Shown piece by piece: positions 18,859-25,639 of a stretch of DNA of 64,000 nt; the first letter of the stretch is position 1, and the number at the start of each line of letters is the position of its first letter. The position numbers were made by a program, and so were the translations under genes. The notes under the pieces were generated by a model, which was given only the letters and a program-made list of their open reading frames with translations, was not told the origin of the DNA and ran no database searches. Source of the DNA: Nitrospirota bacterium (GTDB lineage: Bacteria > Nitrospirota > Thermodesulfovibrionia > Thermodesulfovibrionales > Dissulfurispiraceae). Location of the stretch: the NCBI GenBank assembly GCA_963710375.1, contig CAVPZX010000002.1, forward strand, positions 608,001 through 672,000, written 5' to 3'.

Positions 18859-19367
18859 GAGCACTGCAATTCAGATGGTACGGGATTGTTTTCTTTGCGA
18901 GTGATTAGACTGCTGTGCCAGCCCTGCCGACTGCAAGGAAAGAAAAAATAACATCACCGGCCGGGCAGCGTCAAAAAGACACTGCTAAAACTGTAAAAGA
19001 TAGTATCCAATGTCAGTTCAAGTGTGAGTTTCAGCTTATACGCCGTATGGGTTTTGCCCGTAATAATATTTTCTAATTCTTCCTGCAATACGAAACTTAC
19101 GGTTTTATGTTGATGGTGAGATGTACGACCGGTAATCCGTGAATGTAAAGGCTCAGGATTTAAGCCAGCCGATAGCGTAGGGTGTTGAAAAAATGCTCCC
19201 GCATAAATCTGGGAGTTTTTTGGGTATAATAATAACCTATTGTGGCCGTGTATTTTTTTTGTGGGTTATAAAATTTGCGTTTGCATCGCAGGTATAATGA
19301 TAATAAAAACATATGAAATTATTAGAAAGAATCATTTTGGTTTTGTAAAACAGGGAGGGAATATAAA

Positions 19368-20132
19368 ATGTGTTTTTTAGACTATGACGATAAGGACTGT
19401 AACAGAAAGAATTTAATCAGCAAATACGATAAGGTAAAAATAAAATATGAAAAAATATGGAAGTATTATGACACCGAAATGCCCAAATGCATTGATGATT
19501 GTAAGAATAAAATTAATAAAGAAAACATTGACGGCCCGCAAGGGATATACTGGATTGGTGAGAAGTCTAAGATTTTTTTTGTTGGTTTGGAAAATGATGG
19601 ATGGCCTTCAGTGTCCGATAAGTATCAACCAGAGAATGTTAAGTATGCTCCGTTACACTTCCTGTATTTCAGGGGGGCTTGGATGAGCGGAATATGGAGG
19701 AGGATTAGGTATATCATAGAAAAGAGTGGGTTTGTAGTGCCAGGAGAAGAAGAATGGAGCAATATAATCGATTATTTTGCATTTAGTAATTTATGTAAAT
19801 GCTGTGATAAAAATAATAGCAAAAACAAGCAGGAGAAACTGTATTGTAATTGCTTTGGGCATGGGTTTATTCACAAAGAAATAGAGGCAGTTGATGCACC
19901 TATTAATGTTTTCTTTACTTTAGGGCACCCTGAATTTTTTAATACGTTTATGGGTGAAGCATCCGAGAGGTTGTGCGATGATAAAATATTAAAATGTATA
20001 AAAAGTGATAAAATATTTTATTGTTTACATCATCCTGCAAGGATGTCCGATGAAATTTTAGACTGTTTGTGCGCTGATATAAATGTAGAGATGGGAAGGA
20101 AGGATATTGTTGGTATTGGTAAAATAGTGTAA
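19368..20132 (+). CDS. AT-rich orphan with uracil-DNA-glycosylase-superfamily-like motifs
   Basis: GGAGG RBS; KIFFVGLENDGW, FSNLCKC, EIEAV.API.VF.G, LHHPAR. Confidence 0.55.
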   Translation: MCFLDYDDKDCNRKNLISKYDKVKIKYEKIWKYYDTEMPKCIDDCKNKINKENIDGPQGIYWIGEKSKIFFVGLENDGWPSVSDKYQPENVKYAPLHFLYFRGAWMSGIWRRIRYIIEKSGFVVPGEEEWSNIIDYFAFSNLCKCCDKNNSKNKQEKLYCNCFGHGFIHKEIEAVDAPINVFFTLGHPEFFNTFMGEASERLCDDKILKCIKSDKIFYCLHHPARMSDEILDCLCADINVEMGRKDIVGIGKIV

Positions 20133-20160
20133 TAAACGGAAAAATAAAGGAGGATACAAC

Positions 20161-20343
20161 ATGGCAATTGGATCAGCGGCTCAAAAACAAGAATACAATG
20201 TGTTTGTTTACGATGAAAAGGGTAACGTGCTTTTTCAGAAAACTGGAAAGCTTGTTGGATATACAAGTTCTACAGTAACTGTATATTTCCAGAACACGAC
20301 ATATACTTTTGATGTGAAGGGTAATGTGCTTTTTACGAAGTAA
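20161..20343 (+). CDS. 60-aa beta-rich hypothetical protein with internal duplication
   Basis: AAGGAGG RBS; YDEKGNVLF / FDVKGNVLF. Confidence 0.75.
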   Translation: MAIGSAAQKQEYNVFVYDEKGNVLFQKTGKLVGYTSSTVTVYFQNTTYTFDVKGNVLFTK

Positions 20344-20404
20344 TGTTTTTTTGGGAATGAATAGGCGGGGTGGAACAGGAAATATCCTCTGAAAGCAAAA
20401 AAAT

Positions 20405-20605
20405 ATGCGCTTAGAATGTGATAAATACAGGATACAACGTTCAAAAGTATTGGGTGAAATAGAGGGTTTAGCTGTGGCCTCGGTTAACGGTAAGGATGTA
20501 ATAACCAAGGAGCAATGTATCGAAAGGTTTGAGATGATACTAGAAAAATTCAAGGAATATGATAGGCTTTCGCGGCTTTATGTTAAAGGGTTGGAGAACA
20601 GCTAA
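20405..20605 (+). CDS. Hypothetical protein
   Basis: 66-aa ORF, co-oriented with neighbours, weak RBS. Confidence 0.4.
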   Translation: MRLECDKYRIQRSKVLGEIEGLAVASVNGKDVITKEQCIERFEMILEKFKEYDRLSRLYVKGLENS

Positions 20606-21025
20606 CCATATCACGTCTTGGAACAGAAAGTTATTGAAACCAAGAAAGGATGCAGTAGAACAGAAAATATCTTCTTGAGAAAATGTTATCCAGAGTGTTG
20701 CCCGCTCTCGTGAACGTGGTTTTTAAAGAGTGGGTGCCTTGTTGGCATTTGCCACGGACATCGTTACCAGTACAAAAGCTTCAGTGGCGCGTTTTGTTTC
20801 AATTCAGAAAATTGAGAGTTAAAACTTAACTCATCGTTACGCGTTTGCTTTTTGTTGAAAATCCTCAGTCTCGAACCTTGCTTGATATTGCGGCTTAGTC
20901 GGTGACATCCTCACTGTAAGGCTAATTTGAAAAACACGGACTTCGGAAAGATATTCGCAGGCATAGTTAACAACCCTTCGGAACCGGCACTGTTTTTATT
21001 TGGGTTTTTTTGTTGCCATTTTATA

Positions 21026-21232
21026 TCACAAAAGAAATTTTATGATTATAGAAAAGGGTGGGATACTGGTATCAACAACACTTTGTTCATCCCTATCATC
21101 AGCATAATAGGCCACTATGGTATCGTCAGACAGTTTTTCAATAATTATTTTATGGATACGACATTGTTGTTGAAAGGAGTTGCCGTTGTGGGTTTTTTCA
21201 AGGATTAGTCGTAATTTTTGAAGTATTGTCAT
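21026..21232 (-). CDS. Hypothetical protein
   Basis: GGAG RBS, 68 aa. Confidence 0.35.
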   Translation of the reverse strand: MTILQKLRLILEKTHNGNSFQQQCRIHKIIIEKLSDDTIVAYYADDRDEQSVVDTSIPPFSIIIKFLL

Positions 21233-21313
21233 ATCACTCCCAGCTAATCGTTGCGTCCCGATACAGAAGCGGCTCAGGAGATATAATTAATATTTCAACA
21301 CTTAGGTCATAAG

Positions 21314-21646
21314 TTATTCTATCCCACCTTCAACTGACTCTGCTATTTTGAAAACAACCTCTATAACTTTTTCAGATTCTTCTTTAATCACTTCATCATT
21401 TGTTTTTGCATGAATCAAATTGAACCATCCCTTTGATTCAAGCATGCAAAGGAGTTTTTCGCAGTTTACGCATTTAGGATCGTAATGAATGGTTATGCTA
21501 CCTGTAAGAACATGGCTCTCAAGTGACTTGACGCCAGCTATGCTTTGTAGGTACTCACATAACTTATGAGCATTATCCTCATTATTATGGATAAACGGTG
21601 TCTGAATCCGTAATCTGCCGGGCACATGATGCACATAATATTCCAT
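21314..21646 (-). CDS. HMA2 (heavy-metal-associated) domain protein
   Basis: YYVHHVPGRLRI, GV.S......TGSITIHYD. Confidence 0.8.
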   Translation of the reverse strand: MEYYVHHVPGRLRIQTPFIHNNEDNAHKLCEYLQSIAGVKSLESHVLTGSITIHYDPKCVNCEKLLCMLESKGWFNLIHAKTNDEVIKEESEKVIEVVFKIAESVEGGIE

Positions 21647-21731
21647 TTGCGTCTCTCCGATTTGTTATTATTCAGTAACCTTATAATCAAATTTACCATA
21701 GATATTGTTAAAAGTTACAGCGTGGTTACCA

Positions 21732-21902
21732 ATGAATAGCAGGAACAATAAGAGAAATAATCCTTCCATAACTCAAAAGTCTGCGATAAAATCAACTAAC
21801 CAGCATGAGCAATATGGTTCTATTTGCACCAATAAAGATTGTAAACTGAAAAAAGCAGGTTGCAAAGGATTTGAAGGATGTCCGGGCTACAAAGGCCGAT
21901 AA
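21732..21902 (+). CDS. Small Cys-rich protein
   Basis: C-terminal CTNKDCKLKKAGCKGFEGCPGYKGR. Confidence 0.45.
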   Translation: MNSRNNKRNNPSITQKSAIKSTNQHEQYGSICTNKDCKLKKAGCKGFEGCPGYKGR

Positions 21903-22004
21903 CACGAGAATAATAATCAGGGAGCTTATACATCTGCTATAATTCTGGTGAGTACAAATTATAATTATGCTAGTTTGCAAAATATTTTCAAAAAAAGCTG
22001 ATGA

Positions 22005-22832
22005 ATGATAGCTAACATTATAAAATATGCTCTAATAGTATCGATAATCGTGTTAATGATCCTCTCAGTGTGCAATTTTCAATATAAGCTTCTCTATTAT
22101 CCAAGCTCTTTTATACCCTCACGGGAAGTGCTCAGTGCTAATAACATACAATTCTGGCCCTCAGGTCCAAGCGGCTATCGAGGCTTCATTGGCACTACTC
22201 AGATCAAAAATCCTAATGGCACCATTATAGTATTTCATGGCAATGCCGGTACAGCTGCTGACAGAGCATATTATGTGACGGCGTTAGAATCTTCAGGGTA
22301 TCGAGTCCTGCTTGCCGAATATCCAGGGTACGGAGAAAGAGCAGGAGAACTGGGAGAGAAGTCATTTGTTCGTGATGCAAAGGAAACAGTACATCTTGCA
22401 GTGCAACAATATGGAAGTCCAATTTTTCTCCTGGGAGAATCCTTAGGCTGTGGAGTGACAGCAGAAGTAGCGAAGGACATGCCTGGCACGGTCGGCGGGA
22501 TTGTGCTTATCACTCCTTGGGACACGCTTCTGTCTGTTGCTCAATCCATATTCCCATGGCTGCCCGTGCGATTGTTTATGAAAGACAAATATGACAACGT
22601 TGGAAATCTTAAGGGCTATCGGGGAAGAATTGCCGTGGTAGGAGCGGAACAGGATACGATAATCCCGATGAAACACGCTACTGCATTGTATGAATCATTA
22701 TCTGGAAAGAAAGCAATGTTTGTGATTAAAGGAGCTGGACATAATGATTGGTTATCGTGGGTGGACCCTACATGGTGGCAAAAAATTATGGGATTTGTTG
22801 ATGGAAAAGTCAGCACTCCTACAGGAGCCTAG
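22005..22832 (+). CDS. Alpha/beta hydrolase
   Basis: FHGNAG, YPGYG, GESLG nucleophile elbow, D.IIP, GAGHND. Confidence 0.9.
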   Translation: MIANIIKYALIVSIIVLMILSVCNFQYKLLYYPSSFIPSREVLSANNIQFWPSGPSGYRGFIGTTQIKNPNGTIIVFHGNAGTAADRAYYVTALESSGYRVLLAEYPGYGERAGELGEKSFVRDAKETVHLAVQQYGSPIFLLGESLGCGVTAEVAKDMPGTVGGIVLITPWDTLLSVAQSIFPWLPVRLFMKDKYDNVGNLKGYRGRIAVVGAEQDTIIPMKHATALYESLSGKKAMFVIKGAGHNDWLSWVDPTWWQKIMGFVDGKVSTPTGA

Positions 22833-22948
22833 CTGATACTCATCTCCTTCCTGTAGTCCGCAAGACTAACGTGCTATATAATGGAGCAGATTACAACAGA
22901 AAATCGTTGCAGGTTGGTTGAGAAAATAATGGTGCGGAAATAAATGCT

Positions 22949-24037
22949 AAAAAAGTTACGATACATTTTCGACATTGACGTTTGATGGATCATTATGCAC
23001 GGGCATATCCTATCTTCAGCTGGATACGTGGCTGGAGGAGGCTACAGGATATGCTCAGGGGTCTTCAGAGGTTTGATAAAAACGAAGTGGCAAAACAGCG
23101 ACATAAGATCATTCAGTTCTACGATCAATATGGTGAGGCAGCCACTAAAGAAGCTTTTGGAGCAGATCGCAAGGTGATTTATACCTGGAAGAAAAAGCTC
23201 ATGCAGTCTGGAGGAAGGCTGGAAGCTCTTGTGCCTGTCAGTACAAAACCCTATAACGTAAGGACCATGTCTGTTGATCAGCGTATCGTAGAGTTCATTC
23301 GTGCCTACAGACGCAAGTACGGAAGAATCGGCAAAGAGAAACTTAAACCTTTGCTGGATGCATATTGCAAAGAAATGGGCATTACTACTATCTCTGAGTC
23401 TAAAATAGGCAAGATCATCAAGAGATACAAGTTCTTTTCCCAGGGCAGCCCAGGCAGAGTGTACCACAACCCCGACAGAAAACAGCCTGAGAAATGCAAA
23501 AGACAACGTGTAAAAAAATCACCCAAACCCCTTGAACCAGGTTACCTTCTGGCCGATAGTTCAGTTGTTCACGATGCCGGTGTTACCCGGTACCTGATTT
23601 CAGCAATAGATGTTGTGACTAAGTTTGCCCTGACTGGTTGCTACGGCTCGCTTTCAAGCCGCTCGGCAACAGACTTCCTGAAACGCCTTATGCTTGTTTG
23701 CCCGCTCCCAGTGCTGTCTGTGCAAAGTGATAACGGCTCTGAATTCCTCGGTGACTTTGATAAGGAACTCCAAAAACACAAAATACCGCATCTCTTTAGT
23801 TATCCTCGTTGCCCTAAGATAAATAGTTTCATTGAACGATACAACAGAACAATTAAAGATGAGTTCGTCGCTCAAAACCTCGACTCAATACATGACATCA
23901 AACTTTTTAGAATGCGATTGGCTGAGTATCTTGTCTTCTATAACTGCATTCGACCACACAAAAGTCTTGGCCAAAAATCGCCATCACAGTCACTCATAGA
24001 AAAAGGGGCAATGTCGAAAATGTTTGCAACTCGTACA
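22949..24037 (+). mobile_element. IS481-like insertion sequence with 29-bp imperfect IRs and 6-bp flanking direct repeat AATGCT
   Basis: Left aaaaaagttacgatACATTTTCGACATTG vs right (reverse complement) tgtacgagttgcaaACATTTTCGACATTG; AATGCT at 22943-22948 and 24038-24043. Confidence 0.75.
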
Positions 24038-24046
24038 AATGCTTGA
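22982..24046 (+). CDS. DDE (rve integrase core) transposase; start may be ATG 23051
   Basis: HTH N-terminus; LAD, AIDV.TK, QSDNGSEF, PKINSFIERYNRTI.DEF, YN..RPH.SL. Confidence 0.92.
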   Translation: MMDHYARAYPIFSWIRGWRRLQDMLRGLQRFDKNEVAKQRHKIIQFYDQYGEAATKEAFGADRKVIYTWKKKLMQSGGRLEALVPVSTKPYNVRTMSVDQRIVEFIRAYRRKYGRIGKEKLKPLLDAYCKEMGITTISESKIGKIIKRYKFFSQGSPGRVYHNPDRKQPEKCKRQRVKKSPKPLEPGYLLADSSVVHDAGVTRYLISAIDVVTKFALTGCYGSLSSRSATDFLKRLMLVCPLPVLSVQSDNGSEFLGDFDKELQKHKIPHLFSYPRCPKINSFIERYNRTIKDEFVAQNLDSIHDIKLFRMRLAEYLVFYNCIRPHKSLGQKSPSQSLIEKGAMSKMFATRTNA

Positions 24047-24071
24047 CAATCACCTTAAAGAGGCGTATAAA
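24043..24071 (+). promoter_or_regulatory. Near-consensus sigma70 promoter
   Basis: TTGACA-17 nt-TATAAA. Confidence 0.75.
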
Positions 24072-24077
24072 TGAATT

Positions 24078-24235
24078 AAAGAGCGGCTTGCTAAAAGTGG
24101 TGGTCTTGCTCTTCTCAGGCTCAGCGAAAGGATGTAAAGGAGTAGGACGTAGGTTGTAGACGTAAAAGTCTTAAGCTGTATGTCTCAAACTGTGCAAACT
24201 GCTGAGATATGAGAGGAAGCAAGCACCACTTTTTT
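24078..24235 (+). ncRNA. Candidate structured ncRNA (rod with central bubble, 6S-like topology)
   Basis: Nested pairings AAAAGTGGTG/CACCACTTTT, CTTGCT/AGCAAG, CTTCTCA/TGAGAGG, CTCAGC/GCTGAG, GGACGTA/TATGTCT, AGAC/GTCT; promoter upstream, U-tract downstream. Confidence 0.55.
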
Positions 24236-24255
24236 GTTTATTTGGAGTTCCAATA

Positions 24256-24579
24256 ATGACCCTGCTACGATGGTATCACTACATCGCCATTTTCTTTGCC
24301 GGTGCCTTTCTGACAAACGCGGTGCCGCACTTCGTGAACGGCGTCTCAGGCGGGCCGTTTCAGTCGCCGTTCGCCTCGCCGCCGGGCGAGGGGCTCTCGT
24401 CTTCGACTGTAAATGTGCTGTGGGGGATGACGAACCTGATCATAGGATATGTTTTGTGCCGCGCTGGCCGGTTGCAGTTGCAGCAGACACGACTGGCGCT
24501 GCTCTTCGGCGCTGGCGTGCTGGCGATGGCACTCCTTCTGGCGCGGAGTTTTGGCCGCTTTCACGGCGGACTCATATAG
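24256..24579 (+). CDS. Small integral membrane protein
   Basis: GGAG RBS; about 3 TM segments; NAVPHFVNGVSG.PFQSPFA.PPG. Confidence 0.7.
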   Translation: MTLLRWYHYIAIFFAGAFLTNAVPHFVNGVSGGPFQSPFASPPGEGLSSSTVNVLWGMTNLIIGYVLCRAGRLQLQQTRLALLFGAGVLAMALLLARSFGRFHGGLI

Positions 24580-24804
24580 ACGCTTGCGAGCGCAGGAAAA
24601 ACGATCTGCACGCTTCAGTCGTCAACGAACCGACAATGCAGTTCAGCGGTGTCCGATACTATCAGCTCTGTCAATGCGCTTGATTCTATTGAAAATCGTC
24701 GGTCACGATTCTTATCTGATTTTGCGGCATTGTCGGTGTACCGGTTGCGCAGGGCTCCTTCCTGCTCTACGAAGTTTCATAATACCGCAAATGTGTGCAG
24801 AGTT

Positions 24805-24882
24805 CTACCGGAAATATTGCCTGCCAGGCACCCAAACAGAGTACCCTTCCTCCGATTTCTGTAAGTTTACCTTGTATTTCAT
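24805..24882 (-). pseudogene. Truncated HicB-like antitoxin (about 20 N-terminal codons)
   Basis: GGAGG RBS then MKYKVNLQKSEEGYSVWVPG, after which similarity is lost and a stop follows. Confidence 0.6.
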
Positions 24883-25021
24883 AGCAGCACCTCCATAACA
24901 ATCCTTGTTACTATTTTACCCTTTATTACGGTTTGAGACAAACTTTAAATGAATTACTAGCGTAATCCCCGTGCTCTTGTCGCATGGAAGATTAATCTGC
25001 AGTTCGACACTCGTGAGGTAA

Positions 25022-25639
25022 TTATTTAGGCATATATTTGTCTTTGTCTGCCAGTCCGCGCTCAACGGCTTCAGACAGCGCCTTGTTGATCAATTCTTCC
25101 GCCTTTTCCCTGCTGAACGGGACTGTTTCATAGGATGAGGACACTTCAATTTTCTCCTTGTGCAGTAGTTCTCTTGTCTTGGCGTCAGCAATGCAAAGCG
25201 TGAATTTAATAGAGTAGATATACTCTGTCTTGATAAGATTTCCCGTCACATTGAGGGCAATGTCGTCCAGCGTCCCGCCAACAACAACGACGCCCCAGTC
25301 AGGCTTTAATGACTTAGGGTTCCCGTCCCACGTTTCGTTGGTCATGCTGACCTTATAGCCCCTGTTCTCAAGGTATGAGGCAAAACCTTTCGAGAGGGCC
25401 TCTGCCGGATCGCCAACAAGCGAAATGAAAGGGGTTCCACCTTCTTTTTTCCCGATTACCCTCTTATCGGCAACTTGCCTCTCATCACTGAGCAGAGCCA
25501 CTGTAACCGGGACACCGCCGGTTTTCTCATACTGCTTGAGCGGTTGGTAAGAAAGCGTTATTGGGTAATTTAAAGTGCCCGCACAAGAGACCATTGACGA
25601 CACGAGAAAAAGAAATACAATAATTGCCGCTCTTTTCAT
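25022..25639 (-). CDS. YajG-like lipoprotein
   Basis: Lipobox MVSC, LSYQP, DER...IG. Confidence 0.6.
   Translation of the reverse strand: MKRAAIIVFLFLVSSMVSCAGTLNYPITLSYQPLKQYEKTGGVPVTVALLSDERQVADKRVIGKKEGGTPFISLVGDPAEALSKGFASYLENRGYKVSMTNETWDGNPKSLKPDWGVVVVGGTLDDIALNVTGNLIKTEYIYSIKFTLCIADAKTRELLHKEKIEVSSSYETVPFSREKAEELINKALSEAVERGLADKDKYMPK

Follow-up and report, generated by a model that had tools for sequence, protein, structure and literature searches.

The segment at positions 24078 to 24235 of the window (the whole 64,000-nucleotide stretch of DNA analyzed here) raises the question of what kind of element stands directly behind a transposase gene and whether it belongs to the transposon, to the gene downstream, or to neither. 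The first-pass annotation described a promoter-driven, rod-shaped noncoding RNA on the plus strand, a description now backed by conservation and covariation. The segment is predicted from its sequence to be a stand-alone RNA gene of ~160 bases with a sigma-70-type promoter. It represents a real and apparently undescribed family of structured RNAs, which is absent from Rfam 15 and well supported as structured RNA. A literature search found no description of the family, the main text of two surveys of noncoding RNAs does not include the lineage, and literature searches gave no small-RNA work for the host lineage.

The promoter shows the −35 box TTGACA (24043 to 24048, plus strand) and the −10 box TATAAA (24066 to 24071, plus strand) separated by 17 nt, as first annotated, and a 17-nt spacer is found in 14/14 parsed homologs. 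TA occupies the −10 position in 83 of the 94 family sequences, a set chosen partly on the promoter, so that promoter counts from it are not independent. Among 185,579 genomes, a two-arm pattern that does not include the promoter gives 22 matches. The 20 in Nitrospirota each show TTGACA 53 to 58 nt upstream; the two remaining matches, in Bacilli and Alphaproteobacteria, are due to chance and were dropped. The consensus promoter scanner, whose rule is a T at the last −10 position, missed this promoter, and the terminator scan, limited to loops of 3 to 8 nt, missed the terminator; both calls therefore rest on conservation.

The predicted transcript begins at a +1 placed by promoter spacing and opens with a purine-rich 5′ leader (24078 to 24096, plus strand). 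The 5′ arm of the closing helix follows (24093 to 24117, plus strand), comprising GUGGUG, a 2-nt bulge at 24103 to 24104, and CUUGCUCUUCUCA; this is the part of the RNA with the highest sequence conservation. The helix CUCAGC (24120 to 24125, plus strand) pairs with GCUGAG (24201 to 24206) and encloses an interior rod (24126 to 24200, plus strand) containing the terminal hairpin AGAC-GUAAAA-GUCU (24158 to 24171, plus strand) with the loop GUAAAA at 24162 to 24167. The 3′ arm and the U-tract (24210 to 24235, plus strand) form the predicted intrinsic terminator and 3′ end, with six U's at 24230 to 24235 closing a segment of 158 nt. The interrupted closing stem, inner stem, terminal loop, and U-tract of the annotation are thus all found in the sequence and its fold. 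The segment folds at −63.5 kcal/mol (z = −6.07), with 0/200 shuffles equally stable, compared to −40.9 kcal/mol (z = −3.19) for the minus strand. Reading frames in the family range from 6 to 46 codons and are not conserved. Rfam gives no match at the gathering score across the 64-kb window and none over the element even at an E value of ≤10. Among 10 divergent loci of the family, no Rfam match covers the RNA, and three weak matches at locus L277 fall outside it.

Genome and metagenome matches yield 94 distinct homologs. Of the 80 metagenome loci, 56 were dropped because model R1 gave no score for them on the strand of the hit, and L232, L233, L234, L287, and L288 were left out as partial or very weak matches. 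Homologs are found by blastn in 13 of 61 relatives and by covariance models in 16. The same models detect the RNA in 33/151 genomes of the order Thermodesulfovibrionales (roughly one-fifth), in 26/151 genomes sampled from the class, and in 6/151 from the phylum, and all carriers fall within the Thermodesulfovibrionales, which include the window's family, Dissulfurispiraceae. Carriers are concentrated in three families (13/18, 7/10, and 8/18 genomes in f2, f6, and f1); the RNA was not found in seven other families searched. The genomes surveyed are incomplete, and scoring was limited to the best candidates. Each carrier holds one to six copies, with six in one genome and four in another. A tree of the members shows rod-type, tandem-repeat, and GAUUA-hairpin subfamilies, with members grouping by genus. 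Paralogs within genomes are divergent, with at least three subfamilies, and some loci are syntenic within families.

Several fragments accompany the full-length members. The window's genome (G000) contains an exact 29-nt copy of the 3′ end with the U-tract at C2:120726-120754 (L005:1501-1529), which is probably what remains of a second copy since lost and is fused to an apparent start of a VOC-family gene. Truncated members occur at C12:54218-54388 of genome G280 (L287) and at C109:64584-64682 of G260 (L288); in one of them only the promoter, leader, and 5′ arm are left, so that its promoter now points at a different gene. At L257 and L273, a further conserved, noncoding-looking segment (GAAGAAGT...CCTTGGAATGGGTTAA) common to both lies downstream of the U-tract. 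Twelve viral matches to the hairpin pattern of one subfamily were judged nonmembers.

Covariation supports the proposed helices. Among 25 rod-type members, 13 of the 38 pairs change on both sides. In the same alignment, 96.4% of cells are paired, a value reached by 0/500 shuffles, compared to 37 to 53% in controls with slid partners; the relatedness of the sequences inflates these tests. Alignment of 39 members to the model gives the same result, biased by fitting, and over both alignments the slid controls lie at 35 to 53%. The helix CUCAGC/GCUGAG shows the best covariation of all helices, with changes on both sides in 4/6 pairs. The mean folding z score is −5.8 (92 members), and the plus strand folds better than the minus strand in 53/54 homologs, which bears out the strand preference first proposed. 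Changes that tolerate G-U pairs, together with this strand bias, indicate RNA rather than DNA hairpins.

The purine-rich asymmetric central bubble of the annotation is not confirmed: it is partly paired in the window, and its columns are paired in most of the 25 homologs, forming a 5-bp helix in 18 to 25 and a 3-bp helix in 20 to 23 of them. This result bears on the proposal of a second 6S-like RNA, a promoter mimic that binds RNA polymerase. A long irregular rod with a closing stem would suit such an RNA, and divergent polymerase-binding RNAs that escape Rfam exist. The size of the loop in the minimum-free-energy fold cannot separate the two, because the genome's own 6S RNA also lacks a large bubble by this measure. 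That true 6S RNA, located elsewhere on contig C3 (54.6 bits), and the unconserved bubble nevertheless make 6S mimicry very improbable; in addition, the element gives no 6S match at an E value of ≤10, the interior varies widely in length and is branched in some subfamilies, and the distribution is patchy and multicopy.

The interior of the RNA is built of repeats in varying copy number inside a conserved shell. The quasi-palindromic units of 14 to 15 nt follow the consensus A-(A/U/G)-GUC-KYAR-GAY-GU-A, derived from 81 anchored units. Tandem-type members contain about three to eight clean units (~3 in L017, 5 to 6 in L018 and L021, and 8 in L254) while the shell remains constant, and the RNA ranges from 123 to 201 nt among members. 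In rod-type members, including that of the window, most repeats are degenerate and lie inside helices. Short interior loops read G...A in 78 of 113 cases. The GUAA positions of the terminal loop are conserved at 84 to 95%, with the loop G, A, and A at 92 to 95%.

Such an array recalls the CsrB/RsmZ type of CsrA sponge, in that CAGGAUG appears in some units and csrA is present in the genome of the window. Of the 81 units, however, 38 have A and 41 have G at the key base, 10 of the 94 interiors lack GGA altogether, and a search for csrA found none in 6 of the 16 genomes that carry the RNA, each ≥96% complete. With GGA unconserved and csrA absent from some carriers, CsrA was rejected as a partner, and the reading as a CsrA sponge is largely refuted.

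A second feature of the shell is a predicted folding switch at the 5′ end. The purine-rich leader repeats the sequence of the 3′ arm imperfectly, and folding predicts a hairpin between it and the 5′ arm, spanning 24079 to 24113. In folding predictions for growing transcripts, this hairpin persists until ~135 nt, after which the 3′ arm displaces the leader. The two pairings are mutually exclusive; folding predicts the leader-arm hairpin in 91 members and the closing helix in 90, out of a set of 92 that omits L263 and L231, whose arm pattern could not be parsed. Pairing of the leader with the arm beats its own shuffles in 86/92 members and the leaders of other members in 47/92, that is, cognate leaders are no better than noncognate ones; the pairing is therefore conserved, without demonstrated covariation. 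The leader sequence differs between members, and in each of the two predicted folds the conserved 5′ arm lies in a helix. In the proposed sequence of events, the nascent leader would first pair with the 5′ arm, the interior would then fold into the rod, and the 3′ arm would displace the leader and close the long helix ahead of the U-tract. Transcription would end there at ~160 nt, with both ends of the RNA protected. The conserved loops and periodic internal loops are putative protein-binding sites.

Two alternating pairings of this kind could also be read as a cis attenuator or riboswitch-like leader, with the leader-arm hairpin as antiterminator, the closing helix as terminator, and the interior sensing a ligand or protein. 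Two metatranscriptome contigs of low depth (24093 to 24321 and 24179 to 24314), from two runs of one study with a share of ~0.1, cross the U-tract and extend ~85 nt beyond it; they begin at least 15 nt after the predicted +1. Besides these two and one piece of 50 nt, nothing in 20 kb reaches 95% identity. They give a weak hint of transcription of the RNA gene, as the runs were selected using the same stretch and the contigs cannot show ends or strand. At a few loci, a same-strand gene lies within 25 nt of the RNA. Against attenuation stands the genomic context: of the 94 loci, 36 have a downstream gene on the same strand and 38 one on the opposite strand, and 20 have none within 500 nt; these genes have no common function. 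The window's own downstream gene, encoding a hydrophobic hypothetical protein of 107 amino acids (24256 to 24579, plus strand), also occurs without the RNA and neighbors it at only one other locus. An attenuating leader for this membrane-protein gene, as first suggested, finds no footing in a neighbor so rarely shared and an orientation that is random, and a cis-regulatory role is altogether distinctly improbable.

The wider neighborhood gives the same picture. Among the first 31 loci, neighbors are common only to small groups of two or three, and the 72 neighbor genes scanned have unrelated functions. As the neighbors are unrelated and their orientation is random, the family is independent of neighboring genes. 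This touches the proposal of an RNA antitoxin, here an orphan antitoxin or antiphage decoy whose type III-like repeats would bind a nuclease or phage protein. In outline, type III antitoxins look similar, with a strong promoter, tandem repeats, and a terminator, and a patchy, relocating distribution would be in keeping with such a role. No conserved toxin gene adjoins the RNA, however, either among the 72 scanned neighbors or in an all-against-all neighbor comparison, and the repeats measure 14 to 15 nt, compared to the ~36-nt pseudoknots of type III antitoxins. Little probability can thus be granted to this explanation.

Adjacency to the transposase, correctly noted at first sight, does not extend to membership in the element: the IS481-like insertion sequence (IS) (22948 to 24037, plus strand; Pfam rve_3) ends before the RNA gene, which lies outside it. 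The IS is flanked by the 5-bp target duplication AATGC on the left (22943 to 22947) and right (24038 to 24042) and contains a perfect 15-nt inverted repeat (22963 to 22977 and 24009 to 24023), while its left and right termini differ. The transposase open reading frame (22982 to 24046, plus strand) starts at TTG 22982 or ATG 23051; its best NCBIfam match is the IS481 family at 151 bits, below the cutoff of 224. The only folds matched by a structure model of the transposase (pLDDT 79) were those of integrases, with no hint on promoter targeting, and a search for viral relatives of the transposase found none.

The position of the IS points to its target. It sits one 5-bp duplication upstream of the −35 hexamer, always in the same orientation, and the −35 box of the RNA gene doubles as its landing site. 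In the window's genome, TTGACA follows the right end in 3/4 near-identical copies (TTGCAA in the fourth), and in other genomes it does so in 6/8 (TTGAAC and TTTACA in the rest), giving exact TTGACA at 9/12 ends overall, with the other loci at L197 to L212 and a chance per site of 0.026%. The stop codon TGA of the transposase lies outside the IS, within the TTGACA of the target, and of the 117 transposase homologs that could be parsed from a list of 120, 77 stop exactly two residues beyond the element end (chance, 3.6%). From these sequence comparisons, the lineage is taken to be one that targets promoters 5 bp upstream of the −35 box and borrows its stop codon from TTGACA. A second IS end type (GGACATTTCTA...TGACA), presumably of the IS1202 type, occurs among L013, L231, and L020, exactly 16 nt upstream of the −35 box at two of these RNA loci and providing the −35 box itself at the third. 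A literature search found no description of promoter targeting for IS481. Mutator-like elements unrelated to IS481 (TnGBS, ISLre2, and ISKra4) also target promoters, at 15 to 17 bp (PMC3942029). Compared with these elements as described there, the window's IS differs in its IS481-like (rve) transposase, in the distance of 5 bp, and in the stop codon taken from TTGACA.

These findings also bear on two related ideas, an RNA associated with a transposon and a selfish DNA palindrome (MITE or REP-like) without RNA function. IS ends lie directly upstream of the RNA at four family loci, the 29-nt 3′ fragment is found elsewhere in the genome, and the window's copy lies within an accessory stretch of ~6.2 kb, mostly of low GC content, that follows hisF (18860 to 25030). 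This stretch is absent at the same site in four genomes of the same genus, and two other carriers in the genus have the RNA elsewhere, so that it occupies a different site in each of these three genomes. However, none of the other IS copies in the window's genome (C8:11736, C2:32232, and C2:264240) is followed by the RNA, and two same-genus genomes carry promoter and RNA without the IS. The homologs thus do not follow the transposase family, and the earlier idea of a transposon-associated RNA falls with this. The IS ends beside the RNA are accounted for by promoter targeting, since strong promoters draw such elements and make RNAs of this kind look transposon linked. The promoter, located outside the inverted arms, is kept, G-U pairing is strand biased, and the copy number is low, with members grouping by genus and some loci syntenic; searches of phages and plasmids found no copies. 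A selfish origin is therefore highly unlikely. The relocation of the RNA may reflect rearrangements by promoter-targeting IS. Two further features of the accessory stretch are a 78-bp repeat at its edge directly after hisF (18864 to 18941), with ~11 other copies at 75 to 82% identity in the window's genome and many in genome G005, and an open reading frame of 254 amino acids and low GC content (19368 to 20132) without NCBIfam matches, whose motifs may resemble those of the uracil-DNA glycosylase superfamily.

The reading that fits best, though it can be put forward only tentatively, is a multicopy small RNA family of the Thermodesulfovibrionales whose product acts in trans as a decoy, binding several copies of a protein through its GUC-NYAR-GAY and GUAA modules. 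A stand-alone gene, paralogs, a fixed shell, a variable number of modules, and conserved unpaired bases together favor a protein decoy. CsrB/Rsm sponge families likewise have several paralogs per genome. The up to six divergent paralogs per genome agree with sponge and paralogous families of small RNAs such as FopS (PMC11697453). Against this reading, most repeats of the rod-type members are degenerate and enclosed in helices, and the repeat unit gives 0 intergenic and 4 coding matches in the host DNA and thus no intergenic enrichment, so there is no sign of an mRNA regulon carrying the same site; the motif was not found in host leaders either.

Small proteins with a single RNA recognition motif (RRM) are a weak leading candidate for the partner of such a decoy. 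At L247 and L262, which belong to different genera and RNA subfamilies, small glycine-rich single-RRM genes stand upstream of the RNA promoter in divergent orientation. A single-RRM gene is thus the immediate divergent neighbor at 2/94 loci compared to ~0.09 expected, an adjacency spotted post hoc. RRM genes occur in 31/33 carriers versus 70/118 noncarriers, but within RNA-bearing families the association vanishes (31/33 carriers versus 30/34 noncarriers; P = 0.67). The GUC-loop-GAY unit may resemble the RRM ligand of RBMY, a likeness given no weight as evidence. Ro60 was excluded as a partner, since a TROVE/Ro60 gene is found in 0/5 genomes tested, three carriers included. An ANTAR protein was found in 0/5 genomes, though the control likewise gave none. 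ANTAR-binding RNAs of the EutX type show paired hexaloops with A1 and G4; the loops of the present family read G...A.

A base-pairing regulator, assisted by Hfq or an RRM protein in the manner of FopS, would repress mRNAs through its 5′ leader or the anti-Shine-Dalgarno-like arm (CUUGCUCCUCU), and this explanation is unlikely but has several points in its favor. Hfq is present in 5/5 genomes tested, carriers or not, and the RNA opens with a purine-rich stretch and finishes with a U-tail. The best match of the window's leader to a start region (−26.3) beat 8 shuffles, which were run on half the set. Both predicted folds, however, leave the conserved arm paired, the leader is variable between members, and for five of six segments the best match among 3,028 start regions of one genome lies within the shuffled range; the scan of this genome gave no clear mRNA target. 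A paralogous family of 14 small RNAs in Bacteroides, which acts by base pairing, is bound by an RRM protein (PMC11697453 and PMC13370968), a precedent that supports the RRM lead and the base-pairing rival alike.

A more specific form of the decoy reading, itself quite unlikely, is a new class of self-closing RNAs in which a two-state 5′ switch folds a telescoping quasi-palindromic array into a rod that serves as a dedicated sponge for bacterial single-RRM proteins. If so, rod length, and hence the number of sites, would evolve by gain and loss of repeats, and this would be the first characterized regulatory RNA system of Nitrospirota, as far as the literature searches show. Any decoy would provide a direct route to an RNA-binding regulator, possibly among the little-understood RRM proteins of bacteria. 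The design itself is unusual in that an array of repeats able to expand sits inside a conserved shell with a 5′ switch. The first-pass annotation did not describe the repeats that make up the interior, the hairpin that competes at the 5′ end, or the existence of a multicopy family.

Known RNA systems share parts of this design. CsrB/CsrC and RsmX/Y/Z are likewise stand-alone and paralogous, with a variable number of short modules; the present family differs in its unconserved GGA, in the absence of csrA from 6/16 carriers, and in placing the repeats within a 5′-3′ closing helix, folded as a rod. The mRNAs of the type I toxins hok and aapA show a comparable nascent 5′ hairpin, which hides a Shine-Dalgarno-like tract and gives way to a long-range 5′-3′ helix, but the window's RNA has no conserved reading frame, and no conserved antisense partner was seen. 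Bacterial Y RNAs share the bulged closing helix followed by a U-tail, in contrast to the present carriers without TROVE/Ro60 and the RNA without an Rfam match. 6S RNA (RF00013) is similar in size, with its long irregular rod and closing stem; unlike it, the window's RNA has no Rfam score, no conserved central bubble, and no fixed length, and it is patchy and multicopy in a host with its own 6S RNA. The FopS paralogs of Bacteroides, compared in sequence via Rfam only, have a common 5′ seed and repress mRNAs by pairing (PMC11697453), in contrast to the present family, in which no exposed conserved seed or target was found. Both FopS, with its RRM protein RbpB, and the window's RNA are multicopy intergenic RNAs with canonical promoters, and both come from lineages with single-RRM proteins (PMC11697453).
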